Assembly (NCBI GenBank): GCA_017625565.1
Contig: JAGAKN010000015.1
Location: 6,005 to 70,004 of the forward strand
DNA: 64,000 nt
Direction: 5' to 3'
Origin: Clostridia bacterium
GTDB lineage: Bacteria; Bacillota; Clostridia; Christensenellales; Borkfalkiaceae
Each line of letters starts with the position of its first letter. The stretch's first letter is position 1. The position numbers were made by a program, and so were the translations under genes. Shown here one piece after another: positions 47,951 through 63,732 of the stretch. Under the pieces are notes generated by a model. It worked only from the letters and a program-made list of their open reading frames with translations. It made no database searches and was not told the origin of the DNA.

Positions 47951-47957
47951 ATTTATA

Positions 47958-47988
47958 AAAGCCACTCGCAAAGCGAGTGGCTTTTTCT
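47958..47988 (+). terminator. Rho-independent terminator after the AraC-family gene
   Basis: AAAGCCACTCGC / GCGAGTGGCTTT stem followed by a T-run. Confidence 0.85.
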
Positions 47989-48011
47989 ATTCTACGTTCA
48001 TAAAGCCAAAG

Positions 48012-48041
48012 AAAAAAGGCTTGGATATCCAAGCCTTTTCG
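48012..48041 (-). terminator. Rho-independent terminator after gap
   Basis: AAGGCTTGGA / TCCAAGCCTT palindromic stem with a T-run on the minus strand. Confidence 0.8.
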
Positions 48042-48062
48042 TTTTGCATTTTTCTCGGTGAA

Positions 48063-49082
48063 TTAAAGTTCCGCGAAATATTTGATCGTTCTAACCATTT
48101 GGCTGGTGTACGAGTTTTCGTTGTCATACCAGGAAACGACCTTAACAAGCGTCGTGCCGTCGCCCATGGGCATGCACTTCGTTTGCGTTGCGTCGAACAA
48201 CGAACCGTAGGTGATACCGATGATGTCGGACGAAACGAGTTCTTCTTCGGTGTAGCCGAACGATGCGGATGCCGCCGCTTTCATCGCTGCGTTTACCGTA
48301 GCCGCGTCAACTTCGCCTTCGCAGAATGCAACGAGTTGGGTAAGCGAACCGGTGGGAACGGGAACACGTTGTGCGCAACCGTCCAAAACGCCGTTAAGTT
48401 CAGGGATTACCAAGCCGATTGCTTTTGCAGCGCCCGTCGAGTTGGGAACGATGTTCGCAGCAGCAGCGCGCGCACGACGAAGGTCACCCTTTCTGTGCGG
48501 TCCGTCAAGAACCATTTGGTCACCCGTGTAAGCGTGGATCGTGGTCATGTACCCTTTCTTAATTTTGCAAAGCTTGTTCAACGTATTTGCCATAGGAGCA
48601 AGGCAGTTCGTCGTACAGGACGCAGCGGAGATGATCGTGTCGTTCTTCGTCAACGTCTTTTCGTTTACGCTGTAAACGATGGTAGGAAGGTCGTTGCCTG
48701 CGGGTGCAGAGATAACAACTTTCTTAGCGCCTGCTTTGATGTGCGCTTCGGATTTTGCTTTCGACGTATAGAAGCCGGTGCATTCCAAAACTACGTCTAC
48801 GTCAAGTGCAGCCCAAGGGCAGTTCACTGCATCTTTTTCTGCGTAAATCTTGATCGTCTTGCCGTTTACGGTGATCGTGCCTGCTTCGTCGTCAGCGGAA
48901 ACCGTATCCGCGAGCGCGTATCTGCCTTGCGCAGAGTCATACTTCAAAAGGTGTGCAAGCATCGAGGGGCTAGTAAGGTCGTTGATCGCAACTACTTCAT
49001 AGCCTTCTGCGCCGAACATCTGTCTGAATGCAAGACGGCCGATACGACCGAAACCGTTGATTGCAACTTTTACGTTTGCCAT
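48063..49082 (-). CDS. gap: Glyceraldehyde-3-phosphate dehydrogenase
   Basis: 339 aa. NGFGRIGR and the active site SCTTNCLAP. Confidence 0.97.
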
Positions 49083-49165
49083 AATGTTTATCCTCCAATA
49101 TATGAAAAAATTTATTTGTTTCTATCGGTTGATTTAGGTTTTTAACACCCTTTTCTTCCTAGTAT

Positions 49166-49194
49166 ATTCTACCATACTTTTTCTTTTTCGTCAA
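49166..49194 (-). promoter_or_regulatory. Sigma-A-type promoter for gap
   Basis: Minus strand TTGACG, 17 nt spacer, TAGAAT. Confidence 0.6.
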
Positions 49195-49321
49195 TAATTT
49201 TGCGCAATCGAAAACAAAATTATTTCCCAAATTGTATAGAAAAACGTTTTTTCTTTTCGCCGTCCTGCCTTTTCTGTGAAAAACAGACAAAAAGCGTTCG
49301 GTTTTTTAACTTTGTTTTCCT

Positions 49322-51004
49322 TTAAGGCAGTTTCGGCGTCACCAAAACCGTCTTGTAATCGGTGTACACCACAAACCCCGCTTTGCTTTTGTTTGGCTTT
49401 TTGACGTACTTGCGCTTGCAATAATCCACGGGAATTTTATCCCCGTCCCGCCCATCCGAATAATAGGCGCAAATTTGCGCGGCAACTTCCAACGTTTCGT
49501 CGGAAACACGCTTTCCATCTGTTGCGATAATCACGTGCGAAGAATGGTATTTTTGCGTGTGCAACCACAAATCTTCGGGGGACGCCGACCGCAACAACCG
49601 ATCGTTTTGCAAATTGTTCCGCCCTGCGTAAATTTTCATACCGCCGTGCGTAAACTCCCGAAAAGGAACGGGCTCGTCCTTCCTTTTTACTCCCGCGCGG
49701 AGCTTGGGCGCGCGCAACAACCCCATTTCGATTAACTCCATTGACAATTCCTGAATATCTTCTTTCGTTTCAGCCGTAAAAATCGCCGAAAGCACGCTGT
49801 CCGTGTACTCGATTTCCGCCCGTTCTTGTTCAAGCATCGGCGTCAAAACTTCTTTCGTGCGCTTTTGTTTGTTGTACGCTTTAAAATACCTCTGCGCGTT
49901 TTTCGACGGGGAGAGCGTTTCGTCCAAAGCAATCTTTACCGTACCGCCGTCGGGGGAGTACCAATTTTCTAGCTCCACGCAAGTCGCTCCCTTTTCGATG
50001 CGGTACAAATTCGCCGTCAAAAGCTCGCCTTTGATACGATATTCATCCGCCTTTTCCGACTCCTGCAAGCGCTCCAGCGTCGTTTGTAGTTTTTTTGCCT
50101 GTTTTTTCTTTAACGCGCGAACGGAGTTCTCTAATTTCCGTTTTTGATCGTCGAAACCCTTCTTGCTTTCCCGACGGAAAAAGTACTCGTCTTCCGCCCG
50201 ACAAAGCGACGGCATTTCTACGCCGTTTGGAACGGGGAACGCGAAAAAGTCGACAGGGATTCCCTTTTTATCGTAAGTCACGCAAGGGGAGTTCGGCTCG
50301 TCCAAACAAAACGCGCCGACAAATTCCCAGAGCGGTTTGTCTTGGGTTTTTACCCGTTCCGCAATATGCCTAGTGGTAGAAAGCGCAAGCCCGGAAACGT
50401 TGTTAAACAAGAAATTTGCAACGTCCTCCGCCTCCGTGTTTTTGCGGTTTTTTAGAAAGTTTTCATAGCGTGAACGCATACCTGCCCCGTCGAAAGGCGA
50501 AATTTTATCCTGTGGATCGGGATAGACGTACTTCGCCCCGGCAAGCAACACTCGGCGGGTATTATCTTCCAAAGCGCCCGTTTTTAACGCACCCAAAATC
50601 ACGTCGTTTTCCGTCAATAACACGTTGGAATATTTCCCCATCAACTCGCACCGTAATACGCGGATACTTTGGGAAAAATCCGTCGTACAATGCAGGGAAA
50701 TTTCGATAATCCGCTCGAACCCGTGTTGACGGACGTCTAAAATTTCCGCTCCCTGCAAATGTTTTCTTAAGAGCATGCAAAAATTCGGGGCGACAGGCGC
50801 AGGCTCTTTCTCCGTTTGCGCAAGGCAAACCCGCGCGCCCGAAGCGGATGCGCTAATGACGAGTTTTACCGTCGTTTTTCCCGTGTAGATAATAAACGTA
50901 AGCTCGTCCTTATTGACTTGGGAAATACGGTTGATTTTTCCACCCACTAAAAAAGCGTGTAGCTCCTTTGTCAGGCGTCGGATATGAAAAGCGTCCTGTG
51001 GCAT
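49322..51004 (-). CDS. rqcH: RqcH / FbpA (NFACT-family ribosome quality-control protein)
   Basis: Start at the ATG 51004 (AAGGAA RBS): MPQDAFHIRRLTKELH... NFACT-N and NFACT-R domains, coiled coil, about 560 aa. Confidence 0.85.
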   Translation of the reverse strand: MPQDAFHIRRLTKELHAFLVGGKINRISQVNKDELTFIIYTGKTTVKLVISASASGARVCLAQTEKEPAPVAPNFCMLLRKHLQGAEILDVRQHGFERIIEISLHCTTDFSQSIRVLRCELMGKYSNVLLTENDVILGALKTGALEDNTRRVLLAGAKYVYPDPQDKISPFDGAGMRSRYENFLKNRKNTEAEDVANFLFNNVSGLALSTTRHIAERVKTQDKPLWEFVGAFCLDEPNSPCVTYDKKGIPVDFFAFPVPNGVEMPSLCRAEDEYFFRRESKKGFDDQKRKLENSVRALKKKQAKKLQTTLERLQESEKADEYRIKGELLTANLYRIEKGATCVELENWYSPDGGTVKIALDETLSPSKNAQRYFKAYNKQKRTKEVLTPMLEQERAEIEYTDSVLSAIFTAETKEDIQELSMELIEMGLLRAPKLRAGVKRKDEPVPFREFTHGGMKIYAGRNNLQNDRLLRSASPEDLWLHTQKYHSSHVIIATDGKRVSDETLEVAAQICAYYSDGRDGDKIPVDYCKRKYVKKPNKSKAGFVVYTDYKTVLVTPKLP

Positions 51005-51237
51005 AACAGTTCCTTTATTTTCGCGTGTCGAAAGCTGATAAAAAAGCGAAAAACTTCTTTCTTTTTTTAAATTATACCGCAAATTTTCGAAATTGTAAAT
51101 AAAAACGATAGAAAAACGCTTTATTTTCTTTGACAAATATGCTAAAATGTTAGACGTAGCTACGCGTTCGTATACGCGTGCGTTATATAATATGGTAAAG
51201 AAAAGAAATTAATTAGCAATAGCAGGAGAAATTAGTT

Positions 51238-52536
51238 ATGAAGTACACTACCAAAGCATCGGCAAAAAGTACGGTAAAAATCACCATCAAGTTCGACGGT
51301 GAAGAATGGAAAGCAGCGCAAACGAAAGCGTATTTGAAAACGAGAAGTCGTTTTGCAATCAACGGTTTCCGTAAAGGCAAAGCTCCCAAAAACGTTATCG
51401 AACACGTTTACGGCAAAGGCGTATTCTATGAAGACGCGCTCAACCTTCTCTTCTCGGAAAACTACAATACCATTCTCGACAAGGAAGAAAAGAAGTTTAT
51501 CGCAGTTGGCGAACCCGAAGTTTCGGTGGATAAACTCGAAGACGACGGCGTGACGCTCGTAGCAGTCACCCCTGTAAAACCCGAAGTGAAGATTTCCGCT
51601 TATACGGGTATGAAAATTAAGGAATTTGCGTATACTGTTAAGGACGAAGAAGTTGCAGAAGAAGTCAACCGCCTTTTGGAACGCAACGCACGCAAAGTGC
51701 CCGTGGAAGACAGAGCGGCACAAAACGGCGATATCGCAAATATCGATTTCGTTGGCTCGGTCGACGGCGTGAAGTTCGACGGTGGCGAAGCGCACGGGTT
51801 CGATCTTACGCTCGGTAGCGGACAATTTATTCCCGGTTTTGAAGAACAAGTCGTTGGTATGCAAATCGGCGAAGAAAAAGACGTCAACGTTTCCTTCCCT
51901 GAAAACTACCAAGCAGAAGATTTGAAGGGTAAACCGGCTGTATTTGCGGTAAAACTCAACGCGCTCCAAGCGAAAGAGCTCCCCGAACTTACGGACGAAT
52001 TCATCAAGGAAGCAACGGGTAGCGAAACGGTAGAAGCGTACAAGGAAAAGACGAAAGAACGCCTTGCGCAAATGGCGAAACGTCGCGCGAACGACGCTAC
52101 GGAAAACAGCATTCTCGAAGCGGTTGCTGCGAATGCGGAAGCGGAAATTCCCCAAGCGATGATCGAAAGAGAAATCGACGGTTTGGTACAAAAATTCGAA
52201 TATCAATTAATGTATCAAGGCATGAAATTGCAAGACTATCTCGATTTCTTGAAAACGACGATGGCGGATTTCAGAAAGAATTACGAAGAACAAGCAAAGA
52301 AGAACGTTTTAAATCAATTAATTATTTCGCAACTTATTAAAGACGAAAAGATCGAAGCGACGGAAGAAGAAGTCGAAGCGAGAGTTGCTGAACAAGCAAC
52401 GTCCGTAAGCAAGACGACGGAAGAATATAAAAAGAATATGGATCCCCGTCAATTCGACTATATCCGCAACGATATCATCATTACGAAGTTGTTTGATTTC
52501 TTGAAAGCGAACAACGAAATGTACGTGGAAGAATAA
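51238..52536 (+). CDS. tig: Trigger factor
   Basis: 432 aa. GFRKGKAP ribosome-binding motif and an FKBP PPIase domain. Confidence 0.95.
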   Translation: MKYTTKASAKSTVKITIKFDGEEWKAAQTKAYLKTRSRFAINGFRKGKAPKNVIEHVYGKGVFYEDALNLLFSENYNTILDKEEKKFIAVGEPEVSVDKLEDDGVTLVAVTPVKPEVKISAYTGMKIKEFAYTVKDEEVAEEVNRLLERNARKVPVEDRAAQNGDIANIDFVGSVDGVKFDGGEAHGFDLTLGSGQFIPGFEEQVVGMQIGEEKDVNVSFPENYQAEDLKGKPAVFAVKLNALQAKELPELTDEFIKEATGSETVEAYKEKTKERLAQMAKRRANDATENSILEAVAANAEAEIPQAMIEREIDGLVQKFEYQLMYQGMKLQDYLDFLKTTMADFRKNYEEQAKKNVLNQLIISQLIKDEKIEATEEEVEARVAEQATSVSKTTEEYKKNMDPRQFDYIRNDIIITKLFDFLKANNEMYVEE

Positions 52537-52550
52537 TTTGTTTCGAAAGT

Positions 52551-52574
52551 ACGCCACCGTAAAATCGGTGGCGT
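52551..52574 (+). terminator. Stem-loop between tig and clpP (no U-tract)
   Basis: ACGCCACCG / CGGTGGCGT stem with no following T-run. Confidence 0.35.
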
Positions 52575-52595
52575 CACTATCCCAAGGAGTTTTTT

Positions 52596-53186
52596 ATGGA
52601 AAAGAACGTTTTAATCCCCTACGTCGTAGAACGTACTTCGTCGGGAGAGCGCACTTACGATTTGTATTCCCGCTTACTCGACGATCGAATCATCTTTTTG
52701 AGTGGGGAAATTAACGACGCGGTCGCAAATACCGTCGTTGCGCAACTTATTTATTTGGAAGGGAAAGACCCTACGAAAGATATCAGTTTGTATATCAACT
52801 CCCCCGGCGGTTCGGTTTCCGCTGGTATGGCGATCTACGACACGATGAATTATATCAAATGCGACGTTTCGACGATTTGTATCGGTTTGGCTGCGTCCAT
52901 GGGCGCGTTTCTTTTGTCGAGTGGCGCGCGCGGTAAGCGTTTTGCATTACCCAACTCCGAGATCATGATCCATCAACCTTTGGGCGGAGCGCAAGGGCAA
53001 GCCAGCGATATTAAAATCCAAGCGGAGCACATTTTGCGCACGAAAGCAAAACTCAATCGCATTCTTTCGGAAAACACCGGTAAAGAAATCGGCGTGATCG
53101 AACGGGATACGGATAGAGATTATTATATGTCCGCCGAAGAAGCGCGCGTATACGGTTTGATCGATAAAGTATTTTTAAAACGCTAA
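52596..53186 (+). CDS. clpP: ATP-dependent Clp protease proteolytic subunit
   Basis: 196 aa. Catalytic GLAASMG and HQP motifs. Confidence 0.97.
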
Positions 53187-53381
53187 TCACCGTAATTAGA
53201 AAAGTTTTTCGCGCAGAACCCTTTCGGTTTTGCGCGCTCATTTTCCTTGAATATCCCGTTTCTTTTATGAAAATCAACGGGGCAGGTATGTGATGAAGGG
53301 TTTTTGGGAATACTCTTTTTGGTATTCACAAACCTTGTATATTTCGCATACAATTTTATAGAAAAATAACGGAGTAAAACT

Positions 53382-54620
53382 ATGTCCAATAAAAATCAAC
53401 ATTGTTCCTTTTGCGGAAAACCCAAAGAAGAAACCCGTCGTTTGATTTCAAGCCCTGACGGCGCTTGTATTTGCGACGAGTGTGTGGAAATTTGTAAGTC
53501 AATGGTAGACGAATGGGTGGACGAAAAGGAAACACAATCGGAAGTTCCTTTAAAAAAACCTGCGGAAATTAAAGCGGAACTCGATCAGTATATCGTCGGG
53601 CAAGACAAGGCAAAGCGCGTCCTTTCGGTTGCCGTTTATAACCATTATAAGCGCATTAACGCAACGGCAGATAAAAAGAAAAACGACGACGGCGTAGAAA
53701 TTGAAAAGAGCAACGTTCTTTTACTTGGACCTACAGGGAGTGGGAAAACTTTGCTTGCGCGGACGCTTGCGAAAATTTTAAACGTACCCTTTGCTACTTC
53801 CGACGCCACGACGCTCACCGAAGCAGGCTACGTTGGGGAAGACGTAGAGAATATTCTTTTGAAACTCATTCAAAACGCCGATTACGATATCAACCGTGCG
53901 CAACGTGGAATTATTTATATTGACGAAATCGATAAGATTGCGAGAAAGAGTGAAAACGTTTCGATTACGCGCGACGTTTCCGGGGAAGGCGTTCAGCAAG
54001 CGCTTTTAAAAATTATTGAAAGCACGACGGCAAACGTTCCACCCCAAGGCGGAAGAAAACATCCTAACCAAGAATATTTGCGCATTGATACTACGAATAT
54101 TTTGTTTATTTGCGGTGGCGCGTTCGTGGGACTTGATAAAATCGTATCTTCAAGAAAGGACGATACGACTCTTGGATTCGGCGGAAAAGTACGTTTGGGT
54201 GCAAACGAAGCGGATTATTCCGTTTTAGAAGACGTAAAACCCCAAGATCTTACCAAGTTTGGATTAATTCCGGAATTTGTCGGAAGAATTCCCATCGTCG
54301 TGAATTTAGATCCGTTGGGAGAAGACGCTTTGGTAAAAATTTTGACCGAGCCGAAAAACGCGATAATCAAACAATATCAAAAGCTCGTCGGATTTGACGG
54401 AGTAAAACTGACGGTACAAGACGACGCTGTTCGGGAAATCGCGCAAACGGCAATCCGTTTAAAAACAGGCGCGCGCGGACTTCGGACGATTATCGAAAAC
54501 GTAATGACGGACGTTATGTATAAAATTCCATCTGAAGAAAATATTGAAGAAGTGGTTATTACAAAGGAATGTTTAACCAACGGGGAAAATCCCCTGCTAA
54601 TTTATAAGAAAGCAAGTTGA
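53382..54620 (+). CDS. clpX: ATP-dependent Clp protease ATP-binding subunit ClpX
   Basis: 412 aa. Zinc ribbon CSFCGK...CDEC and Walker A GPTGSGKT. Confidence 0.97.
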
Positions 54621-54625
54621 TTTAG

Positions 54626-54654
54626 AAAGCCTTACTTTTAGTAAGGCTTTTTTA
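54626..54654 (+). terminator. Rho-independent terminator after clpX
   Basis: AAAGCCTTAC / GTAAGGCTTT stem followed by a T-run. Confidence 0.85.
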
Positions 54655-54664
54655 TTTCCTTTCA

Positions 54665-54693
54665 TTGACAAAACTTTTAAGAAGTGTTATAAT
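54665..54693 (+). promoter_or_regulatory. Consensus sigma-A promoter ending 6 nt upstream of the ATG at 54700
   Basis: TTGACA, 17 nt spacer, TATAAT (perfect). Confidence 0.7.
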
Positions 54694-54699
54694 TTTCCT

Positions 54700-55191
54700 A
54701 TGGAACAAATTTCTTTTTTAGAAGAAAAATTACCGATGACGGCGTGCGTATTTACCGGACACCGAGAATTAGAGAAGGATTTTTCTTTAAAAAAATTAAA
54801 ATATTTAACGGAAACCCTTATTTTAAAAGGAGTTTCCTCCTTTTACTGTGGCATGGCAGAAGGTTTTGATTTATTCGCGTCGAAAACGGTAATTTCTTTA
54901 AAAAAGAAATATCCACATATTCAGTTGATTGCTTGTATTCCTTGCCTTAACCAAGAAAAATATTTTTCTTCTGTAAATAAAAAACTCTACGTAAAAACGT
55001 TATCCTCTTGCGACGAAAAAGTGCTCCTATCTCCGTCTTATCATAAAGGCTGTATGTTAAATAGAAATAAATATATGGTCGATCATTGTGATTGTATGAT
55101 TGCGTATTGCAAAAAGGATACAGGTGGAACAGCTTTTACCGTGAAATATTTCCAAAAAACAAAAAACAAAACGAATATCTTCTTCCTATAA
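54700..55191 (+). CDS. DUF1273 / YpsA-like SLOG-family protein
   Basis: 163 aa. FTGHR, GMAEGFD and TGGT motifs resemble the YpsA/SLOG family. An alternative start at Met13 (54736) aligns better with family N-termini. AT-rich and uses many TTA codons. Confidence 0.65.
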   Translation: MEQISFLEEKLPMTACVFTGHRELEKDFSLKKLKYLTETLILKGVSSFYCGMAEGFDLFASKTVISLKKKYPHIQLIACIPCLNQEKYFSSVNKKLYVKTLSSCDEKVLLSPSYHKGCMLNRNKYMVDHCDCMIAYCKKDTGGTAFTVKYFQKTKNKTNIFFL

Positions 55192-55200
55192 TCCCCGTTA

Positions 55201-55480
55201 CTTAAATATATTTATATAAATAAAAATAGTAGTATTAGTAGTAGTGTGGGTGGAAAAGTGGACAACCCTTAAAAATAAAAAATAAAGCCCTTTTAATTAA
55301 AGAAATTTTTAGAAAAAATCGTTGTGTAGAACTTCCCTTTTTTTAGTGGATATTATTGTGAATAGTTTGTGGAATTGTGTATAGTAAAAAATTTAAAATT
55401 TTATATTTATAAAAAAGTAAATAATAAAAATACAAAATGAAAACAGTCCACAAACGTTGTTAACATTGTGGATAAACGTG
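55201..55480. other. oriC-like region: AT-rich tract, DnaA-trio run, GC cluster, DnaA boxes, a second 60-bp AT tract
   Basis: - 55201-55226 is 25/26 A/T.
- 55227-55244 reads TAG TAG TAT TAG TAG TAG.
- 55245-55253 is TGTGGGTGG.
- Degenerate boxes lie at 55257, 55323, 55345, 55357, 55368 and 55377.
- 55381-55440 is 56/60 A/T.
- A perfect TGTGGATAA lies at 55467-55475. Confidence 0.75.
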
Positions 55481-55534
55481 TTGTTTATAGAAAGTGAAAT
55501 TCTTTATAAAGCGTAAAAAAATTAGGAAATAAAT

Positions 55535-56206
55535 ATGATTAAAGAACAATTAATTAAAGAAAAAAAAGAATATTTCGATGCGTTTAGGGCGTTGATTTTA
55601 GAATATAATAAGCGGTTTAATTTAACGACGATTTTGGATGAAAAAGATATGTATTATAAGCATTTTCTCGATAGCGTTGCCGGGATAGAGTGCTTTGAAA
55701 AAAATACGAAAGTTGCAGAAGTAGGTTCAGGCGCAGGGTTTCCTTCCATCGCATTAAAAATTGTTGAACCGAGTTTAGAATTTTCCCTTTTTGAAAGTGT
55801 AGGAAAAAAATGCGAATTTTTGCACGTTGTTGTGGATAAACTTGGATTAAAAGGAATGTATATTTATAACATGCGTGCAGAAGACGCATTAAAGGAAAAC
55901 ATACATAGAGAACAGTACGATTACGTGACAGCGCGGGCAGTTGCTCGTATGAATACGTTGACGGAATACTGTTTGCCTTTTGTAAAGGTGGGCGGAAGGT
56001 TTATTGCATATAAAAGCGGTGAAAAAGAAGAGATTGACGAAGCAAAAACCGCCTATAAAACGTTGGGCGGAACGTTGGAAAAAATTTACGAGTACGAATT
56101 GCCTGAAAATTACGGAAAAAGGATTATTGCCGTTGTAAAAAAGGTAAAAAATACGCCTTTGCAATATCCGCGCGGACAAGGAAAAGAGCGAAAACAACCA
56201 CTTTGA
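55535..56206 (+). CDS. rsmG: 16S rRNA (guanine527-N7) methyltransferase RsmG (GidB)
   Basis: 223 aa. SAM motif VGSGAGFP and family-typical length. Contains an internal perfect DnaA box at 55831-55839. Confidence 0.9.
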   Translation: MIKEQLIKEKKEYFDAFRALILEYNKRFNLTTILDEKDMYYKHFLDSVAGIECFEKNTKVAEVGSGAGFPSIALKIVEPSLEFSLFESVGKKCEFLHVVVDKLGLKGMYIYNMRAEDALKENIHREQYDYVTARAVARMNTLTEYCLPFVKVGGRFIAYKSGEKEEIDEAKTAYKTLGGTLEKIYEYELPENYGKRIIAVVKKVKNTPLQYPRGQGKERKQPL

Positions 56207-56257
56207 AAAAATTCCGCGCAAAACGTGGATAAAATGTGTTAAAAACAACGTTTTTAC

Positions 56258-56286
56258 TTGCAAAAAAAAGCAATTTATAGTACAAT
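56258..56286 (+). promoter_or_regulatory. Candidate dnaN promoter with an upstream DnaA-box-like site
   Basis: TTGCAA, 17 nt spacer, TACAAT. CGTGGATAA (1 mismatch) lies at 56224-56232. Confidence 0.5.
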
Positions 56287-56327
56287 GAAAAGGAAGAAAA
56301 AAGAAAGTTTATAAGGAGAGAAAATTT

Positions 56328-57446
56328 ATGAAATTTGTTTGCGACGGAATGGTGCTTTCGGATGCCGCTACGACGGTAAGTAAGGCTTGCGCGGTAAAGA
56401 CGATCACGCCGATTATGGAATGTATCAAAATGCGTGCGGAAAACGACGGACTTATTTTGACTGCTTACGACGGTGAAATTTCCATTGAAAAGAAAATTCC
56501 TGCAGACGTTATGGAAGAAGGCGAAATTTGCGTGAAAGGAAAAACGTTTGCTGATTTCGTTGGTAAAATTTCCGCTTTTGAAGTGGTTATAAGCTCCAAC
56601 GAAAAAGGAATAAAAATTAATTACGCGGACAGCGAATCTTTTATGCAAACACTCTCTGCGGAAGATTTTCCCCGCTTAGGAAATCAACTCGGCAACAACG
56701 AACATTATTTTGAATGCAAGGAATCGGCATTGAAAAAACTCATTTCCGAAGTTGTGTTCTGTTGCGCAACCGACGAAAGTAGACCGATTTTGAAAGGTTG
56801 CTTGTTAGAAGCGAAAGACGGTGTTTTGTCGGCGTCGGCGCTGGACGGATTCCGTATGGCTTGTTCTTATTGTGAAGAGGTAGAAGGTAGCGGAAATTTA
56901 AAAATCGTTTGTCCTGCGAGAACGTTAACGGAAATTTCCCGTATGCTTGACGGCGACGAACCGTTGAAAATTTTTGCCGATAAAAACTTGTTGTCGGTAT
57001 GCGTAAAAGATACGGTGATCACGTCGAGATTGTACGCAGGAGAATTCGTTAGAAAAGAAAATATTTATCCCTTGGATTCGACGACGAAACTTACGGTAAA
57101 ACGCGCGGAAATGATCGATAGCGTCGAACGCGCGTCCGTACTCATTCGTGGAGATAAAAACAATTTGATTTTGCTTGATATTAAAAACGGGAAAGTCGTG
57201 ATTAATGCGAACTCCGAAATGGGCAAAATTGAAGAAACGGTTTCGGCGACGCTGGACGGGAAAGATTTGCGGATCGCGATGAACGCGAAGTATTTGTTGG
57301 ACGCGATAAAAGCTTTAGATGAAGAAACCATTAAGCTCGCATTCACGTCGGCGATTTCCCCTTTCACTTTGGAAAATGCGGAAAATCCGCGCGCGCAATA
57401 CTTAATTTTACCCGTACGTACGGGAAATTCGGGCGCAAACAACTAA
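56328..57446 (+). CDS. dnaN: DNA polymerase III beta sliding clamp
   Basis: 372 aa. Three-domain clamp pattern and a YLILPVR C-terminal motif. Confidence 0.95.
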   Translation: MKFVCDGMVLSDAATTVSKACAVKTITPIMECIKMRAENDGLILTAYDGEISIEKKIPADVMEEGEICVKGKTFADFVGKISAFEVVISSNEKGIKINYADSESFMQTLSAEDFPRLGNQLGNNEHYFECKESALKKLISEVVFCCATDESRPILKGCLLEAKDGVLSASALDGFRMACSYCEEVEGSGNLKIVCPARTLTEISRMLDGDEPLKIFADKNLLSVCVKDTVITSRLYAGEFVRKENIYPLDSTTKLTVKRAEMIDSVERASVLIRGDKNNLILLDIKNGKVVINANSEMGKIEETVSATLDGKDLRIAMNAKYLLDAIKALDEETIKLAFTSAISPFTLENAENPRAQYLILPVRTGNSGANN

Positions 57447-57474
57447 AAAAAGCGGAAAGAGCGTAGAAAATCAC

Positions 57475-57503
57475 TTGACGAGTTTGTCCGTTTGCGTTAT
57501 AAT
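57475..57503 (+). promoter_or_regulatory. Sigma-A-type promoter for rpmH-rnpA
   Basis: TTGACG, 17 nt spacer, TATAAT. Confidence 0.65.
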
Positions 57504-57579
57504 AAATGAAGTTATCGTGGGGTAGCTTGCGAAACAAAGAAAAATAAAAAATAAAAACATTTAGTTTAGGAGAAAGGAT

Positions 57580-57714
57580 ATGAAAAGAACTTACCAACCC
57601 AAAAAGAGAACGAGAAACAAAGTACACGGATTTCGTAAAAGAATGTCTACGACTGCAGGCAGAAGAGTGTTGAAAAGACGTAGAAATAAGGGTAGAAAGA
57701 GATTAACGTACTAA
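57580..57714 (+). CDS. rpmH: 50S ribosomal protein L34
   Basis: Not in the ORF track because it is under 60 aa. Own translation: [53 protein letters not shown] upstream. Confidence 0.95.
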
Positions 57715-57737
57715 AACGAAACAAAAAAAGCAGGTAT

Positions 57738-57764
57738 TCCTTTCCTTAAATTTTAAGGAGAGGA
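57738..57764 (+). terminator. Hairpin between rpmH and rnpA (possible partial terminator)
   Basis: TCCTTTCCTTA / TAAGGAGAGGA stem (1 mismatch) followed by a T-rich sequence. Confidence 0.4.
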
Positions 57765-57821
57765 TTTGCCATTTTAACAACGGGGAAACAGGGTTTTCGT
57801 TTGTAGGTTGAACACGGATCA

Positions 57822-58139
57822 ATGAAGTATTTAAGACTGAAAAAACAAGCGGACTTTCAAAGGCTGTTTCAAAAAGGAACGCGGGCGTTTTCGTCGTCAC
57901 TGACGATGCTCTACCGTCCGTCGGAAAAGATGCGGATGGGGATTTCCATCGGTAAGAAACACGGAAAAAGCGTACGGAGAAACCGAATAAAAAGGCTTTT
58001 ACGGGAAGCGTTCCGCTCCACGCAGGGATTGATGAAAAAAAATTATTCTATCGTCTTGATCCCGAAAGTGCGGGAAGAATACGCCTTTCAAACGTTCGAA
58101 CGGCATTTAAAATGTATGATAGAAAAAGAGAATTTGTAG
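57822..58139 (+). CDS. rnpA: Ribonuclease P protein component
   Basis: 105 aa. [12 protein letters not shown] and the RNR motif [16 protein letters not shown]. Confidence 0.9.
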
Positions 58140-58156
58140 GGACGAATTTTTTCCGA

Positions 58157-58438
58157 ATGTTCACGGAAAACGCAATCTATTTGCGAAAAACGGTGTTTAA
58201 GCCGTATTTAAAAATGCTCTGTTTACGAATGATTTTGTTCTATCAACGGCATTTGTCTAAACATACTTGCCGTTATAACCCGACTTGTTCGCAGTATACG
58301 TTAGAATGTATTCATATTCACGGCCCGATTATAGGGATAGTGTTAGGCTCGTGGCGAATACTTCGGTGTAATCCCTGGTCGAAAGGCGGATACGATCCCG
58401 CCCCTGAAAAGTACAGAAAAAAACGTTGGCTATTATAG
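58157..58438 (+). CDS. yidD: Membrane protein insertion efficiency factor YidD
   Basis: YQRHLS...[15 protein letters not shown]...[15 protein letters not shown] signature. The start is ambiguous: 58112, 58157 or 58214. Confidence 0.85.
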
Positions 58439-58486
58439 CCGAATAAACGCGTGTTGGAAGGAATTCCAGCACATAAAAGGAAAATC

Positions 58487-59929
58487 ATGGAATTGATGAA
58501 TATATTGGAAACACAAATCCCTATTTTTGGTGAAACCTACGGCGTATCGTTAAACTGGATCGGTAATTTGATTCGGTTGTTGATTTCCGGCGTCGGTGTT
58601 GTCGGCGTGGGGATTATTCTCTTCTCGCTTGTATTAAAACTCATTGTTTTGCCCTTCGACGTATTCCAAAGAATTTCGATGCGAAAGCAAAACAATAAGA
58701 TGAAAGAACAAAAAGAGAAAATGGAACGCTTGCAAAAGCAGTACGCCAACAATAAGGAAATGTATAACCAAAAGGTTATGGAAATGTACAAAGAAAACGG
58801 GTTTTCGATGTGTTCTTCCTGTTTGCCGATGATTATCTCGCTTGTCATCTTTATCGTGGCGATTAACGCGTTCAACGCGTTCTCGCAATATTCTAACGTG
58901 CAAAACTATAACACGATGGTAGAAGCGTATAACGCGGAATTAAAATCCTATTGCGCGGAAATTAACGAAGAAAATCTTTCTTGGGATAATGAAACCGTGC
59001 TTGTTAAGGACGATGACGGCGAAAATAAATTTATCTATTTTAAGACGGAATATAAAGACGACTACGCCGGAATGACGAAAGCGGAAATCGCGCAGAATAT
59101 CGTAAACGCGAAAAAGACGTACTTCGTCGACGTAGAAAAGTCGCTCGCGAATGCAGAGATTCTTGCCTACGTAGAACAGGCGGTTGCGTCTTCTCAACAA
59201 ACGGCAGAACCGATGGATAAAAATACCGCGGTGTACTTGTATTTTGTAGAAAAGGGTCAAGACGCGGTTGTAAAAGCATACCAAACGACGGTAAAGGACA
59301 AAACGGAATTCCTTTGGATCAAGAACGTATGGTCGACGGATGCGCACTATAAGCACCCTGTTTTGAGTTATTCCAAGTTCGCATCGGAAGCGAAACAAGA
59401 AAAGTTCAAAGTAGACGGTAAAAAAGTAAAATACAGCGCGATCGGCGAAAAAACGGGTACGGACGTGTACACCGAAACAACGTATAATTTGGTGACGGCG
59501 AAACTCGGCGAACAAAAGAAACAAGCAAACGGGTATTATATTCTCGTCGTGCTTTCGATCGGTACGATTTTGTTGCAACAATTCGTATCTATGCGCTCGC
59601 AAAAAGACCAACAAAAATTTGCGTCGGTAGACGGACAAGGCGCAGGGCAACAAAAGATTATGATGGTCATCATGACGGGTATGTTTGCAATCTTCTCGTT
59701 CATGTATAGCGCGGCGTTCTCCATCTACATGATCACGAGCAACCTATTCTCATTGCTCTCCACCATAGTCATCAATAAATGCGTGGATATGAGCGCGAAA
59801 AGAAAAGAAGCGCGCGCTACGGAAGCGAAGTTGGATAACCGCCATATCGCGCGTGTGGAAGCGGCAAAAAACGCAGGCAAGAACTCTGCGCAAAAAAGCC
59901 AAAACAAAAAATCCAACAAAAAGAAATAA
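58487..59929 (+). CDS. yidC: YidC/Oxa1-family membrane insertase with an enlarged extracytoplasmic loop
   Basis: Start at the ATG 58487 (AAAGGAAAA RBS). TM1, coiled-coil and TM2 pattern, then an insert of about 220 aa before the remaining TM segments, and a basic C-terminal tail. Confidence 0.85.
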   Translation: MELMNILETQIPIFGETYGVSLNWIGNLIRLLISGVGVVGVGIILFSLVLKLIVLPFDVFQRISMRKQNNKMKEQKEKMERLQKQYANNKEMYNQKVMEMYKENGFSMCSSCLPMIISLVIFIVAINAFNAFSQYSNVQNYNTMVEAYNAELKSYCAEINEENLSWDNETVLVKDDDGENKFIYFKTEYKDDYAGMTKAEIAQNIVNAKKTYFVDVEKSLANAEILAYVEQAVASSQQTAEPMDKNTAVYLYFVEKGQDAVVKAYQTTVKDKTEFLWIKNVWSTDAHYKHPVLSYSKFASEAKQEKFKVDGKKVKYSAIGEKTGTDVYTETTYNLVTAKLGEQKKQANGYYILVVLSIGTILLQQFVSMRSQKDQQKFASVDGQGAGQQKIMMVIMTGMFAIFSFMYSAAFSIYMITSNLFSLLSTIVINKCVDMSAKRKEARATEAKLDNRHIARVEAAKNAGKNSAQKSQNKKSNKKK

Positions 59930-59992
59930 GAAACAGTAGAAATCGTTCCAAACAAACCAAGAAAAACGTTCGGGACAAGGAGTTATAGAGAA

Positions 59993-60895
59993 ATGGAATA
60001 TAGGGAATTTACCGGGAAAACGGTAGAAGAAGCGATAGGCAAAGGGTTGGAAGAACTCGGTCTTACCGCGGAAAACGCGGACGTGCGCGTTTTAGAAGAA
60101 GGAAAAAAGAAATTATTCGGTTCGGTAAAAGCTCGCGTAGAAATTGCACCGAAAGACGGCGTGACGGTAAAACCGAGCTCTGCGCAAACGGTAGCGAATA
60201 AAACGGACGGCGAACGCACGGTAGAGTTCTTGGAAGGCTTGTTTAAGCTCTTGAACATTACCGCTTGCACGGAATTGGTCGCCGAAGGCGAAAAGGTAGA
60301 AATCAACGTGACGGCGGCGAATACGAACTCGGTTATCGGCAAACGCGGAGTGATGCTCGACGCAATCCAAACGCTTGCCGGCGCAGTTGCGAACACGGGT
60401 AGGGAAGAATATAAGCGCGTTGTCGTCGATTGTGAAAATTACCGCGAAAACCGAGAAGCGACGCTTACCAAGCTTGCGGATAATTTGGCGCAAAAAGCGA
60501 CGAGATTGGGTAAAAAGATCAAGCTTGAACCGATGAACCCGTACGAAAGACGGATTATTCACTCCGCGCTTGCGGAAAGAAGCGACGTTTCGACGCAAAG
60601 CGAAGGGAAAGAACCCAACCGGTATTTGGTAATCATTCCCGAAAACTTGGAAGATCCGTCCGCACCTGCAATCCCAGCGAGAAACGAAAGAAACGATAGA
60701 CGTAGCCGTGGGAATTTTAACCGTGACAGACGTGAACGTAGTGGTCGCGGTGGTTTTAACAAGAAACCGTTTGATCGTAATAGACGTCGCGAAGCCCCGA
60801 GATCCAGCGGATCGGGTGGTGGAACGAGCTTGAAAGCATCCAACGATTTCTTCGGCATTTTCCTTGGCAACAGTGGAAACGACGAAAACAAGTAA
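59993..60895 (+). CDS. jag: Jag/KhpB (Jag_N, KH, R3H) RNA-binding protein with an Arg/Gly-rich C-terminal extension
   Basis: 300 aa. N-terminus MEYREFTGKTVEEAI, R3H motif ERRIIHSAL, tail RNERNDRRSRGNFNRDRRERSGRGGFN... Confidence 0.85.
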   Translation: MEYREFTGKTVEEAIGKGLEELGLTAENADVRVLEEGKKKLFGSVKARVEIAPKDGVTVKPSSAQTVANKTDGERTVEFLEGLFKLLNITACTELVAEGEKVEINVTAANTNSVIGKRGVMLDAIQTLAGAVANTGREEYKRVVVDCENYRENREATLTKLADNLAQKATRLGKKIKLEPMNPYERRIIHSALAERSDVSTQSEGKEPNRYLVIIPENLEDPSAPAIPARNERNDRRSRGNFNRDRRERSGRGGFNKKPFDRNRRREAPRSSGSGGGTSLKASNDFFGIFLGNSGNDENK

Positions 60896-60905
60896 AATAA
60901 AAAGC

Positions 60906-60943
60906 ACGCCCCCTTTGCGGAAAACCGCAAAGGGGGCGTTTTT
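60906..60943 (+). terminator. Strong rho-independent terminator after jag
   Basis: Perfect 15-bp stem ACGCCCCCTTTGCGG / CCGCAAAGGGGGCGT with an AAAA loop and a T-run. Confidence 0.9.
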
Positions 60944-61045
60944 CAGTAAAAACAAGGTTGTGTTTTCGATTGTTAGATTTGCTTAGGCGCTCGCGTTGAC
61001 GGGTAGGTAATCCCGTCACGGCGATAGGAAAGAGAGAAAACTCGA

Positions 61046-61579
61046 TTAAGTGTTTTTATGATCCATCGATTTCATTTGTCGACGCAAAAGGAAATACAAC
61101 GGCGTACCTAACCCGTACACCCAAACAGACTGCGTAAGCAATAGGCAGGTTGCGTAAAAGAAGTACGCTGTCCACGCGCTATCCTTTCCGCTGAGATCCC
61201 CACACAAAAAGACGATAATCAACGGGATCATCAAGGCGTTAAATAACACGGGAAATATTCCGCCGAGCGTCAAGCGCACGCCGTCCTTTTTGAACACTCT
61301 GCCAACGGCATACGTACATAAGCCTGCAACGAGCGTCGTCAACGAGCCGAGTAAAACGTCGTAGAGCAAAAACGGCGACGACAGGTTGGAGATCATACAC
61401 CCGATCCAAAGAGCGGGTACGGCTTCTATAAAGAAAAGCGGTAAAATGCAAAGCGCCTCTGCGGGACGGATTTGTAAAGGTCCGAAAGCAAAGGGCGCGA
61501 ACGCGTAGGTAAGCACTACGTAAAGGGCAGCAAAAATTCCTGCGCGACAAAGACGTTTGGTCAATAAAACGTTTTTCAT
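61046..61579 (-). CDS. queT: QueT-family queuosine-precursor transporter
   Basis: 177 aa, about 5-6 TM segments. AALYVVLT...FGPLQIRPAEAL motif typical of QueT. Preceded by a preQ1-type aptamer. Confidence 0.8.
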   Translation of the reverse strand: MKNVLLTKRLCRAGIFAALYVVLTYAFAPFAFGPLQIRPAEALCILPLFFIEAVPALWIGCMISNLSSPFLLYDVLLGSLTTLVAGLCTYAVGRVFKKDGVRLTLGGIFPVLFNALMIPLIIVFLCGDLSGKDSAWTAYFFYATCLLLTQSVWVYGLGTPLYFLLRRQMKSMDHKNT

Positions 61580-61587
61580 TTGTAATA

Positions 61588-61630
61588 CCTCGGTTTTTTT
61601 ATCAGGAAGTGTTTTCCGAAAACCTTCCTA
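61588..61630 (-). ncRNA. preQ1-I riboswitch (translational; SD sequestered in P2)
   Basis: Minus strand reads GGAAG-GUUUUCGGAAAACA-CUUCC-UGAUAAAAAAACCGAGG. There is a 5-bp P1, the loop UCGG pairs with CCGA in the tail (P2), the tail is A-rich, and GAGG is the SD 9 nt from the AUG. It matches the layout of the B. subtilis queC aptamer. Confidence 0.75.
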
Positions 61631-61638
61631 CGACGGAT

Positions 61639-61667
61639 AGTATACCACGTTCCTTTTTGTAAGTCAA
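61639..61667 (-). promoter_or_regulatory. Sigma-A-type promoter for the riboswitch-queT transcript
   Basis: Minus strand TTGACT, 17 nt spacer, TATACT. Confidence 0.65.
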
Positions 61668-61677
61668 GCGAAATTCG

Positions 61678-62301
61678 TTATTTTGCCATACGCTTTTTTC
61701 CGCAACGTTCCCATAACAGGTTGGCAATCGCGTCGGAAATGATTTCGGACATCGTATACACGAGATTTAACCGAGTGGTGTTGAGTAATCCGTAATTTGC
61801 TACCGATTTTTCCGCGACAACACCCATAATCGAAATATCCCCGAACGAGCCCAACTTCTTATTCGCGCCTGCCCCAGGGCGTAAGGGTGTATCGTTTATT
61901 TTAATCAATCCGATATCCCCACTCTCTCCAACGGCGGCGTCGATGGCAATCACGGGGCTATCCTTATGCGTTTCCTTTAAAAACGTGCGCATATAACGGA
62001 TTTCTTTCGCCGTGATCGGCGCGGAAAGCGTTCCGTACAAAAATACGCGCAACCCCTGCGTTTTATAGCGCAACATCGATCCCGTAATCGGCCCGACGCA
62101 ATCTCCGATCGCAAGATCGCTCCCCACGCAGACAATCACGGGCGTTGGTGCGTCTTGTAGCCCGTTTTCCACCGTTAACTGCGTACCTGCCCTGCCTTTT
62201 TCTCCCTTTTTCCCTTGCGAAACTTTGCGCAAAAGCGCATCCGTCGCCATAGACATTCCGTCTGATGCGAACTTGTTATAAATATGAAAAGAGTACTCCA
62301 T
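61678..62301 (-). CDS. yyaC: YyaC-like putative sporulation protease (DUF1256)
   Basis: VCVGSDLAIGDCVGPITG and IAIDAAVG motifs. Start taken at the ATG 62301; the ORF track starts at the GTG 62325. Confidence 0.75.
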   Translation of the reverse strand: MEYSFHIYNKFASDGMSMATDALLRKVSQGKKGEKGRAGTQLTVENGLQDAPTPVIVCVGSDLAIGDCVGPITGSMLRYKTQGLRVFLYGTLSAPITAKEIRYMRTFLKETHKDSPVIAIDAAVGESGDIGLIKINDTPLRPGAGANKKLGSFGDISIMGVVAEKSVANYGLLNTTRLNLVYTMSEIISDAIANLLWERCGKKRMAK

Positions 62302-62406
62302 TTTCAAAACCCCATATAAACTCACGAAAAAGTATAGCCAAAGCAGGCGTTTTTTAAACGGGATCGCAGGAATAGAAAAGAAAAAATAAAAAAATTCTCT
62401 TTTAGG

Positions 62407-62435
62407 TTGAAAAAACGCGTCTTTTGTGGTATAAT
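62407..62435 (+). promoter_or_regulatory. Sigma-A-type promoter for the cvpA-like gene
   Basis: TTGAAA, 17 nt spacer, TATAAT with a TGG extension. Confidence 0.65.
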
Positions 62436-62462
62436 AATAGAACGGAGCAAAAAGGAGCGCTT

Positions 62463-63185
62463 ATGACGAACGGCATTTTGCAAAATTTATGCGCAATTCA
62501 ATGGTCGCGATACGTCTTTGACGTCATCGTGGTGCTTTGTTTGCTAGGATTTATGATTGTTTCCGCGCGTAAAGGTTTTGTGGAATGTTTTTTCGGGTTT
62601 GCGTCTACGCTTATCGCGCTATTCGTCGCCGTTGCCTTTGCGAAAGCGTTTTTAAATATGACGGGCGGATTGTTCGGTTTGCAGAAATTTTTTGACGGAA
62701 AGTTTACCAAATTCTTCTCCAAGATTTCCGGGTTTGACGTGGATATTTCCCAAGTAGGCTTAGAAACGGCGTTAGAGAGCCAAGACGTATCCGCGTTGCT
62801 AGGAAAACTTGCGCTGAAAACCTTCGGGAAAGGGGAGCTTGCGCCGGGCACGACGCTTGGAATGGTGCTCGGTACGACGGTTGCTAAATTGACGGCAACG
62901 CTTGTTTCGGCGATCCTGCTTTTTATTGTAGCAAAACTCTTGCTCGGCTTGGCGAAAGCCGTGCTCCGCGCGGTGGTTATGCGTTTGCGATTATTGGACG
63001 CGGTAGACACCTTACTCGGTGCGGTGGTTGGGATTGCGGAATGTTTACTGCTCGTTTGTTTCGTAATGTCGGTGCTTACGATCATTCCGTCGCAAACCGT
63101 CGTAGCGTATTTGGAAAACGGCTTGCTAGTCGGTTGGCTTTACCGCAATAATTTAATCGTATATTTGCTCGGATTATTGTTGTAA
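62463..63185 (+). CDS. cvpA: CvpA-family (colicin V production) membrane protein
   Basis: Start at the ATG 62463 (AAAGGAG RBS). N-terminus DVIVVLCLLGFMIVSARKGF typical of CvpA, 4-5 TM segments. Confidence 0.8.
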   Translation: MTNGILQNLCAIQWSRYVFDVIVVLCLLGFMIVSARKGFVECFFGFASTLIALFVAVAFAKAFLNMTGGLFGLQKFFDGKFTKFFSKISGFDVDISQVGLETALESQDVSALLGKLALKTFGKGELAPGTTLGMVLGTTVAKLTATLVSAILLFIVAKLLLGLAKAVLRAVVMRLRLLDAVDTLLGAVVGIAECLLLVCFVMSVLTIIPSQTVVAYLENGLLVGWLYRNNLIVYLLGLLL

Positions 63186-63194
63186 ACCTTTCTA

Positions 63195-63666
63195 CTATCC
63201 ACAGAAAAAAACGTTATCCACAATGAAAAAAGAAGAAAAAAGTTCCCCCGAAAACGGCTTGTAGGATCTTGTCGCGCGGGGGATTTTTTTGTCGAAAAAT
63301 AAAATTATAAATCGTATGCAAAAGCAAAAAAAGTCGGTTATCCACAAAAATGTGGAGAAAAAAAGGTTGTCCACCCAACAAATTTCAAAAATGTGGATAA
63401 TTAGCCCTGTCAATGTGCAAGCAGGGGCTGTTTTAAAACGGGTATTTTATTAAAACTCCTTGAAAACAAAGGGAAAGAGATGTGGATAACTACTCCACAA
63501 ACGCGCGCAAATAAAGAAAAGAAGATAAAAAAAACTTGTGGATAAAAAACAGGGAGAGAGAAAAAAGTGGATAAATTTGCAAAAACGTCGCAAAAAAAGT
63601 GAAAAAATATGCGCAATTATCCACAAACGTTTGTTCTTTTCCACAAGTCGAAAAAAGTTTTCCACA
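63195..63666. repeat. Dense DnaA-box cluster (13 boxes, 6 perfect)
   Basis: - Perfect TTATCCACA/TGTGGATAA at 63214, 63338, 63392, 63481, 63537 and 63617.
- One mismatch at 63195, 63351, 63566, 63637 and 63658.
- Two mismatches at 63367 and 63491. Confidence 0.9.
63244..63290 (+). terminator. Candidate terminator after cvpA
   Basis: 7-bp stem TCCCCCG / CGGGGGA with a 26-nt loop, followed by T7. Confidence 0.45.
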
Positions 63667-63732
63667 AATATGCATTGCAGTATATTTGCATACGGGGTAA
63701 AATTATGCAAAAAACAGGTGCTGGAATGGTCC

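Follow-up and report, generated by a model that had tools for sequence, protein, structure and literature searches.

A probable dnaN-linked replication origin without a neighboring dnaA in an uncultured clade of gut Clostridia

Gene order and DnaA boxes around dnaN

We analyzed a 64-kb stretch of DNA (hereafter, the window) from an uncultured gut Clostridia bacterium of the "Candidatus Scatosoma" group, a genus placed by NCBI in Clostridia incertae sedis. The analysis centers on the genes around dnaN, which encodes the DNA polymerase III beta clamp, and on two nearby clusters of DnaA boxes, one of which is a candidate chromosomal replication origin (oriC). Genes at this locus were identified with NCBIfam models, and the remaining window genes through the Pfam annotation of identical metagenome contigs. 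A ypsA-like gene (PF06908, 54700-55191), the last gene of the left replichore, is followed on the same (+) strand by rsmG (gidB, 55535-56206), dnaN (56328-57446), rpmH (57580-57714), rnpA (57822-58139), yidD (58112-58438), yidC (58451-59929) and jag (59993-60895). A bidirectional terminator hairpin (60906-60939) closes the rpmH-jag stretch, beyond which lies a block (61046-63185) made up of queT (-), the spore protease gene yyaC (-) and cvpA (+, 62463-63185). A first-pass annotation, made from the sequence alone, had described a co-directional run from rsmG to jag, and all of its gene identities and strands were confirmed.

The same annotation had given dnaN, placed after rsmG, a promoter of its own with a DnaA-box-like site. 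Both were recovered in the + strand rsmG-dnaN intergenic region (56207-56327), as a promoter-like site (TTGCAA-17-TACAAT, 56258-56286) and a minus-strand DnaA box (TTATCCACG, 56224-56232). As had also been noted, rpmH follows dnaN on the same strand, starting 134 bp past its end. It is preceded by a strong promoter-like site of its own (TTGACG-17-TATAAT, 57475-57503); hence, it is probably transcribed independently, and not solely via read-through from dnaN. No terminator was predicted between the two genes.

DnaA boxes were defined as TTATCCACA with at most one mismatch, unless otherwise stated. The window contains 32 of them compared with 9.8 expected, a number reached in 0 of 100 shuffles. 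Two clusters stand out: cluster A (55192-55534), between ypsA and rsmG, and cluster B (63195-63666), beyond cvpA. The distance of 7.7 kb reported previously between the two box regions was reproduced (last box of A at 55475, first box of B at 63195). A perfect box (TTATCCACA, minus strand) is also present inside the rsmG coding region (55831-55839).

For comparison, GTDB species representatives were scanned with DnaN, which yielded 21 metagenome-assembled genomes (MAGs) of Ca. Scatosoma or uncultured Clostridia (DnaN identity 53-86%) from sheep, deer, chicken, rabbit and human gut. A metagenome scan with a DnaN alignment added 80 further loci, with DnaN identity down to 46%, several of them from high-coverage human-gut assemblies. 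These related loci cover 6-10 kb on each side of dnaN, and all genomes are short-read MAGs or metagenome contigs.

A putative unwinding module in cluster A

Cluster A holds one perfect DnaA box and several degenerate ones, with the weaker group spanning 55245-55475. Read from the ypsA side, it begins with a 26-bp stretch of 100% A+T (55201-55226), a putative DNA unwinding element. Directly adjoining on the + strand are six DnaA-trios, TAG TAG TAT TAG TAG TAG (3'-GAT-5' type; TAGTAGTATTAGTAGTAG, 55227-55244), followed by a 4-nt spacer, TGTG, and tandem DnaA boxes, GGTGGAAAA and AGTGGACAA (spacer and boxes 55245-55265, boxes 55249-55265, + strand). Further towards rsmG are three degenerate boxes in the same orientation (AGTGGATAT, TTGTGAATA and TGTGGAATT; 55340-55385, + strand), at a place where relatives carry four to five good boxes. 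A second AT-only stretch (55385-55430), which is probably part of the rsmG promoter region, separates this group from an inverted box pair, GTCCACAAA ... TGTGGATAA (55443-55475), that flanks the presumed rsmG promoter and is kept in relatives as TTATCCACA-N13-TGTGGATAA. Only two 27-mers in the 64-kb window have a GC content of 0%; both are within cluster A, and one of them is at the unwinding element. By eye, the order of elements in cluster A and the position of the unwinding element are conserved in relatives down to 46% DnaN identity.

This arrangement resembles the basal unwinding system of Bacillus subtilis, which is found widely in bacteria and for which sequence rules have been published. 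These call for a DnaA box with no more than two mismatches and for three or more trios, each with A in the middle and preferably 3'-GAT-5', set apart from the box by a spacer that does not exceed 16 bp and is commonly 13 bp long (PMC8287927). Cluster A, a putative system of this kind, conforms to every one of these sequence rules. The boxes GGTGGAAAA and AGTGGACAA have two mismatches each (relatives have pairs with one mismatch), and the better one, which is the distal, lies 12 nt from the nearest TAG of the trio run. The spacer, of the GC type, reads TGTG in the window, and relatives have GGTGC or GGGCG there. Six trios follow one another without interruption at 55227-55244, the AT-rich element at 55201-55226 lies directly beyond them, and the switch in strand composition described below coincides with cluster A. 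Moreover, the reverse complement of the trio run, CTACTACTAATACTACTA, closely matches the trio of Clostridioides difficile oriC2, CTACTACTATTACTACTA; in that origin, which has been unwound experimentally, the assigned trio CACCTACTACTATTACTACTATGA is one base off CTACTACTAATACTACTA of the window (PMC7561715).

A pattern modeled on the published rules was matched by 50 of 71 related loci in the region upstream of dnaN, compared with 0 matches in the other 539 kb of sequence. Earlier, stricter trio-module patterns undercounted the relatives, and the figure of 50 comes from a rule closer to the published one; degenerate versions of the module are visible by eye in most of the remaining 21 loci. 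Two loci (L101 and L102) stand apart, with unchanged gene order and a GC-rich rsmG-dnaN spacer of 232 bp (5769-6000) that is devoid of DnaA boxes and trios, so that their origin must lie elsewhere.

GC skew switches at cluster A

GC skew was calculated per gene at third codon positions and expressed on the + strand. It was negative for nearly all genes between 0.8 and 54.6 kb, including the + strand genes at 40-55 kb, and positive from rsmG (55.5 kb) to 73 kb, including the - strand gerA operon. Because each sign is found on genes of either strand, it tracks position and not transcription direction. The cumulative G3-C3 curve reaches its minimum at 55191, exactly at the end of ypsA. Pooled skew was -0.120 left of A, +0.074 from A to B and +0.124 right of B; the step at A was highly significant (left of A versus the A-to-B interval, Fisher p=7e-10), whereas that at B was not (A-to-B interval versus right of B, p=0.2). 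Four of the five relatives that carry both clusters have the same step at A (L023, L024, L026 and L031; p=2e-3 to 4e-7), and in the fifth the left flank was too short.

Since skew switches at A and not at B, replication has long started at A. The first-pass annotation had described an origin neighborhood between two DnaA-box regions and proposed skew analysis to decide which of them fires. Both clusters are real, but they are not equivalent: the unwinding module and the skew switch are found at A only. This leaves little doubt that cluster A, and not cluster B, is the firing origin.

The switch in gene strand (~39.6-40.0 kb) does not coincide with the switch in skew (55.2 kb). Between them (39993-55191) lie about 14 + strand genes, among them an asnC-type regulator, an aminotransferase, greA, lysS, a yaaO-like gene, tmk, araC, tig, clpP, clpX and ypsA. 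An origin at the gene-strand switch (~39.8 kb) was considered and rejected, as there is no box cluster there and skew keeps its left-replichore sign up to 55.2 kb. In relatives, tig-clpP-clpX is found in several other positions and orientations.

Absence of dnaA from the locus and soundness of the assembly

The absence of dnaA from the 64 kb, claimed in the first-pass annotation, withstood three kinds of search. No DnaA signature motif was found in six reading frames of the window, and a Pfam scan of its unannotated open reading frames (ORFs) gave no DnaA. Searching the window and all fetched loci by tblastn with B. subtilis DnaA (a sequence that Pfam scores as a full DnaA) gave a best E value of 1.3. 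A dnaA inside the window is rejected on these grounds. The annotation had also allowed for a dnaA just outside the window, in a canonical context hidden by misassembly. However, identical metagenome contigs add 5.3 kb on the left and 9.2 kb on the right, and no Bac_DnaA domain is found among called genes from -5.3 kb to +73.2 kb in window coordinates, which excludes this case. No DnaA homolog was detected in the ~100 related loci within their 6-10 kb flanks either. That the clade possesses no dnaA at all is nonetheless very unlikely, given its conserved consensus boxes and trios.

Every source here is a short-read metagenome assembly and no isolate genome was seen, which leaves room for the idea that the contig is chimeric and that dnaA really sits beside dnaN in a canonical context. 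The evidence goes strongly the other way. Over 11.5 kb, an independent ENA scaffold (XIEF21-1...scaffold_482) matches the window with 100% identity. At least three ENA assemblies, made from different samples, share the gene order, as do Logan assemblies of separate runs. Skew is continuous over the junctions, and rpmH follows dnaN in 87 of 88 loci across many hosts, studies and assemblers. An artifact of assembly or binning is thus effectively refuted already, and we regard it as scarcely credible.

A different concern is that the real origin lies elsewhere, next to the unseen dnaA, with clusters A and B being no more than promoters under DnaA control or relics of an origin used in the past. 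In favor of this, dnaA was not found in the searched regions, and the gene-strand switch at ~39.8 kb lies off cluster A. Against it, the switch in third-position skew falls exactly at A, both in the window and in four relatives, and the two most AT-rich 27-mers of the window are both in A. The trio and AT module, moreover, is strongly conserved down to 46% DnaN identity, where a relic would have decayed. An origin elsewhere is therefore highly improbable.

Cluster A as the probable chromosomal origin

Taken together, we consider it very probable that cluster A is the active chromosomal oriC and the equivalent of oriC2/incC, one half of the canonical Bacillota origin, that dnaA is unlinked from it throughout the clade, and that cluster B is a separate accessory site. 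By analogy with B. subtilis and C. difficile, DnaA-ATP would bind the tandem boxes at 55249-55265, a DnaA filament would extend from there over the six TAG-type trios (55227-55244), and this filament would melt the adjoining 26-bp AT-only stretch (55201-55226). The boxes towards rsmG, together with the inverted pair over the rsmG promoter, probably stabilize the complex, and the same boxes probably render expression of rsmG (and with it dnaN) sensitive to DnaA. Cluster B may act as a reservoir of DnaA or as a distant oriC1-like partner that reaches A by looping.

Several points weigh against this interpretation. In the regions searched, no dnaA was found for the organism or the clade, and the existence of DnaA is deduced only from conserved boxes and trios. 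The trio-adjacent boxes of the window carry two mismatches each, and its middle box group is degenerate. Skew records initiation over evolutionary time and not the activity of the present arrangement. In addition, with an origin at 55.2 kb the leftward fork would meet + strand genes, tig-clpP-clpX among them, head-on over ~15 kb (40-55 kb), which is unusual in Bacillota; these genes already have the skew sign of the left replichore, and the arrangement is hence not a recent one. Not every locus has cluster B, which was found in 11-12 of 18 informative loci and sits 2-13 kb from A on either side, and this makes its link to origin function uncertain. Finally, all counts over relatives are phylogenetically non-independent.

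Ancestral layout and probable derivation of the window order

Comparison of the related loci, a synteny check that the first-pass annotation had called for, showed that, in 87 of the 88 loci that were long enough, rpmH is co-directional with dnaN at a distance of no more than 1.2 kb behind it, and rnpA-yidD-yidC-jag come next; the exception (L056) has an inserted gene. The region upstream of dnaN is more variable. In 44 of 65 informative loci, the first gene upstream of dnaN is rsmG on the other strand; it is ypsA (+) in 9, rsmG (+), as in the window, in 5, ypsA (-) in 1 and another gene in 6. The placement of rsmG directly upstream of dnaN and reading towards it, as first described, therefore applies to the window but is not the basic state of the lineage, in which rsmG points away.

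In the majority layout, the elements run from rsmG to dnaN as inverted box pair, box group, tandem boxes, GC spacer, trios and AT stretch, which is the orientation of canonical oriC2. Based on this layout and orientation, the ancestral order of the clade is ypsA<-rsmG<-(oriC)->dnaN->rpmH->rnpA->yidD->yidC->jag. The order in the window, ypsA->(AT-trios-boxes)rsmG->dnaN->, is by the same comparison a derived local inversion. It could have arisen from an intermediate resembling L027 (rsmG<-(oriC) ypsA<- dnaN->) through one inversion of the rsmG-oriC-ypsA block.

According to the first-pass annotation, no single inversion of the canonical arrangement could produce the order seen here. This is literally correct, as dnaA is missing, but the co-directional run does not require more than one. 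Inverting the block oriC1-dnaA-oriC2-dnaN within the canonical jag<-yidC<-rnpA<-rpmH | oriC1 dnaA-> oriC2 dnaN-> would put dnaN beside rpmH and co-directional with it, yielding dnaN->rpmH->...->jag, and would also preserve the orientation of oriC2 towards dnaN. The flanking genes fit this scenario. Those belonging to the right arm in B. subtilis (gyrBA, serS, holB, tmk and lysS) lie here at the far side of the origin, and left-arm genes (jag and yyaC) come after dnaN. A block inversion would not account for the removal of dnaA from the origin, for the arrival of rsmG and ypsA, or for some local shuffling. Other genes listed in the first-pass annotation were likewise confirmed: gyrB-gyrA are at 14.3-18.9 kb, 37 kb from dnaN, and Pfam annotation recovered serS, dus, holB, yaaT, lysS, a yaaO-like decarboxylase gene and tmk in the window.

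Cluster B, a probable accessory site

Cluster B comprises 12 DnaA boxes of mixed orientation in 470 bp (63195-63666), in the gap between cvpA and gerAC, the 3' ends of which converge there. No DnaA-trio or TAG run and no AT-only stretch was found in it, and its lowest 27-mer GC content is 11%. It contains a conserved Spo0A-type box, TGTCGAA (usually TTTTGTCGAAAA), at 63290-63296 in the window. Over relatives L011-L031, such boxes are enriched in both clusters (B, 11 versus 0.55 expected; A, 6 versus 0.65 expected), which suggests sporulation control of initiation. Among Scatosoma relatives the layout of cluster B is conserved, with the Spo0A box, a box triplet, several spaced boxes and three boxes ~20 bp apart that end near gerAC. 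The queT-yyaC-cvpA block moves together with it.

The position of cluster B relative to A is not fixed. A cluster of at least four boxes within 2 kb upstream of yyaC is present in 11 of 18 informative loci (12 counting L023), and in L020 and L029, for example, no cluster B was found at its expected place. The distance from A to B is 7.7-12.7 kb in Scatosoma genomes. In L022, the queT-yyaC-cvpA block lies on the opposite side of A, and in the distant relatives L076 and L092 a B-like cluster is located ~2.2-2.5 kb from A, in the layout (parS parS)(B) yyaC-> <-ypsA <-rsmG (A) dnaN->.

In seven distant relatives (L066, L067, L076, L078, L087, L092 and L094), the box cluster at yyaC has two or three near-perfect parS sites (GTTTCACGTGAAAC) at its flanks. 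The window has a single parS-like palindrome, TGTATCACGTGAAACA (34444-34459), located 21 kb to the left of the origin in the gene for a peptidase M50.

Two other identities for cluster B were rejected. A small RNA or gene is contradicted by the lack of any Rfam match, by a hairpin (63404-63432) that is not conserved in L011 and by small ORFs that look spurious. A second firing origin is contradicted by the lack of a trio and AT module and of a skew change at B in most genomes. Judging from its motifs, cluster B is most likely an accessory site that is predicted to bind DnaA and Spo0A and to be unable to unwind DNA.

How such a site would act can be viewed in several ways. We somewhat favor an origin-proximal reservoir or regulator that lies outside the origin proper and buffers free DnaA, with the Spo0A box tying initiation to sporulation, a role compatible with cluster A being the origin. 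Consensus boxes are dense in cluster B with no unwinding module among them, the convergent-gene location is outside any promoter, and presence, distance and side relative to A all vary. The Spo0A box is both conserved and enriched, and the organism is spore-forming, with gerA and yyaC adjoining the cluster. Comparable DnaA-box clusters outside the origin exist in B. subtilis (the DnaA-box clusters known as DBCs) and in Escherichia coli (datA). These likewise combine dense consensus boxes near the origin with the lack of an unwinding element, and a titration role for B would be by analogy. One feature that fits a reservoir less well is the constant tie to yyaC, including a location directly upstream of yyaC in distant relatives, which could mean that the cluster descends from a DnaA-regulated yyaC promoter.

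Alternatively, the two clusters could be halves of a split bipartite origin, with B as oriC1, A as oriC2 and DnaA looping out the 7.7 kb from rsmG to cvpA, such that B is needed for efficient unwinding at A. Two box clusters with an unwinding element in only one of them is the definition of a bipartite origin, and in C. difficile oriC1 is required for melting of oriC2 in vitro. The 12 boxes in B and the fewer in A match the clostridial numbers of 9-19 for oriC1 and 5-9 for oriC2 (PMC7561715). Wherever it is seen, B is within 2-13 kb of A, and in L076 and L092 the spacer of 2.2-2.5 kb consists of yyaC, ypsA and rsmG. In the window, the convergent neighbors of B imply that it is a promoter for neither. 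Nonetheless, a spacing of 7.7-13 kb is far above the ~2 kb of known bipartite origins (PMC4285127), 6-7 of 18 informative loci (e.g., L020 and L029) lack B where it would be expected, it occurs on either side of A (L022 and L076 versus the window), and skew does not change at B in most genomes. On balance, a split bipartite origin appears unlikely.

We give equally little weight to a more general version, in which the clade origin is a modular split element: a self-sufficient unwinding module tied to dnaN, and a movable DnaA/Spo0A(/parS) module tied to yyaC that acts by looping from 2-13 kb away on either side, with the initiator gene gone from the origin region. If this were true, neither linkage of dnaA to oriC nor a short spacer between oriC1 and oriC2 would be required in Bacillota.

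Other features of the window

The ypsA gene is preceded by a near-consensus promoter-like site with an extended TG (TTGACA-17-TATAAT, 54665-54693). YidC has 492 aa, and the 191-position YidC core profile covers residues 51-443, indicating an insertion of ~200 aa. Jag has 300 aa, with an Arg/Gly-rich C-terminal tail of ~85 aa past the 203-position profile. Both lengths are retained in relatives. A 1,186-aa ORF (4257-7817, +) and smaller ORFs at 28546-29415, 35576-36298 and 44144-45154 had no Pfam match; the ORF at 28546-29415 is directly downstream of a ParA-like gene, where ParB might be expected. Neither a tRNA gene nor an Rfam match was found anywhere in the window.

The identical contigs extend the gene content beyond the window. 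To the right (up to +73.2 kb) are gerAC-gerAB-gerAA (-) and genes for two methyltransferases, a peptidase, a MatE transporter and fumarase. To the left (to -5.3 kb) are those for Ppx/GppA, Maf, MreB, FtsH and a ParB-like protein.

Relation to known origins and implications

The closest counterpart of cluster A is the oriC2/incC region of B. subtilis and C. difficile, in which boxes, a tandem pair, a short GC-rich spacer, 3'-GAT-5' trios and an AT-rich element follow in the same order. In the ancestral layout of the clade, the AT-rich end points to dnaN, which matches the canonical origin exactly. The differences are in the surroundings: rsmG and ypsA replace the upstream dnaA, and in the window the module is inverted, with rsmG between it and dnaN. 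Reviews treat the canonical context (rnpA-rpmH | oriC1 | dnaA | oriC2 | dnaN) as conserved in Bacillota, and so does the work on the C. difficile origin, clostridia included (PMC7561715). Here, no dnaA separates the two clusters, and rpmH-rnpA-yidD-yidC-jag are co-directional behind dnaN instead of divergent and opposite to it. The canonical position of the unwinding element, directly upstream of dnaN and facing it, is not seen in the window but is found in the majority arrangement, rsmG(-)|oriC|dnaN(+).

Other bipartite origins, including those of B. subtilis, C. difficile, Helicobacter pylori and mollicutes, likewise have two clusters, one of them with an unwinding element. Their spacer, however, is a single gene, usually dnaA, and the total is no more than ~2 kb, compared with 7.7 kb and nine genes here. 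In this clade, the spacer also varies from 2 to 13 kb on either side, and the second cluster is sometimes absent.

In E. coli, oriC lies in the context gidB/rsmG-gidA-oriC-mioC, and dnaA is ~40 kb away. The similarities are that dnaA is unlinked and that the rsmG (gidB) unit reads away from the origin, as in the ancestral layout of the clade. The architecture is unrelated, however, and mnmG is lacking here, and the resemblance is a convergent accident of context. The E. coli origin has been noted to lie in a different gene context, and origins outside rnpA-rpmH-dnaA-dnaN are common among bacteria (PMC4285127).

Cyanobacteria offer a parallel at the level of linkage. Origins linked to dnaN only, with dnaA translocated, are the rule there and have been explained by an ancestral dnaA-oriC-dnaN arrangement that lost dnaA (Gao 2014, PMC4009838). 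As in cyanobacteria, an origin by dnaN is a lineage-wide trait in this clade; oriC is 0.8 kb from dnaN across rsmG in the window and directly adjacent to it in most relatives. The phylum is a different one, however, and the box motif is TTTTCCACA in cyanobacteria versus the TTATCCACA type here. No rpmH operon after dnaN is described in that study, and here a second box cluster is nearby. As cyanobacterial dnaN-linked origins are already well known, the surprise is smaller than the first-pass annotation held. In the open-access full-text literature (DoriC being outside the scope of the search), we found no published description of a dnaN-linked origin without dnaA in Clostridia, or of the dnaN-rpmH order.

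The predicted mechanism of this origin is ordinary. Its context is out of the ordinary for the phylum, and a large, abundant and uncultured gut clade has it in common. Such a clade provides a natural test of whether linkage between dnaA and the origin matters, be it for autoregulation, gene dosage or local DnaA supply, and also of the maximum separation of two box clusters in a Gram-positive origin. There are practical consequences as well. Origin predictors that use dnaA as an indicator could misplace the origin in these genomes, as could metagenomic growth-rate estimates for which the position of the origin matters (peak-to-trough ratio methods). The correct origin landmark for these genomes is the rsmG|dnaN module.

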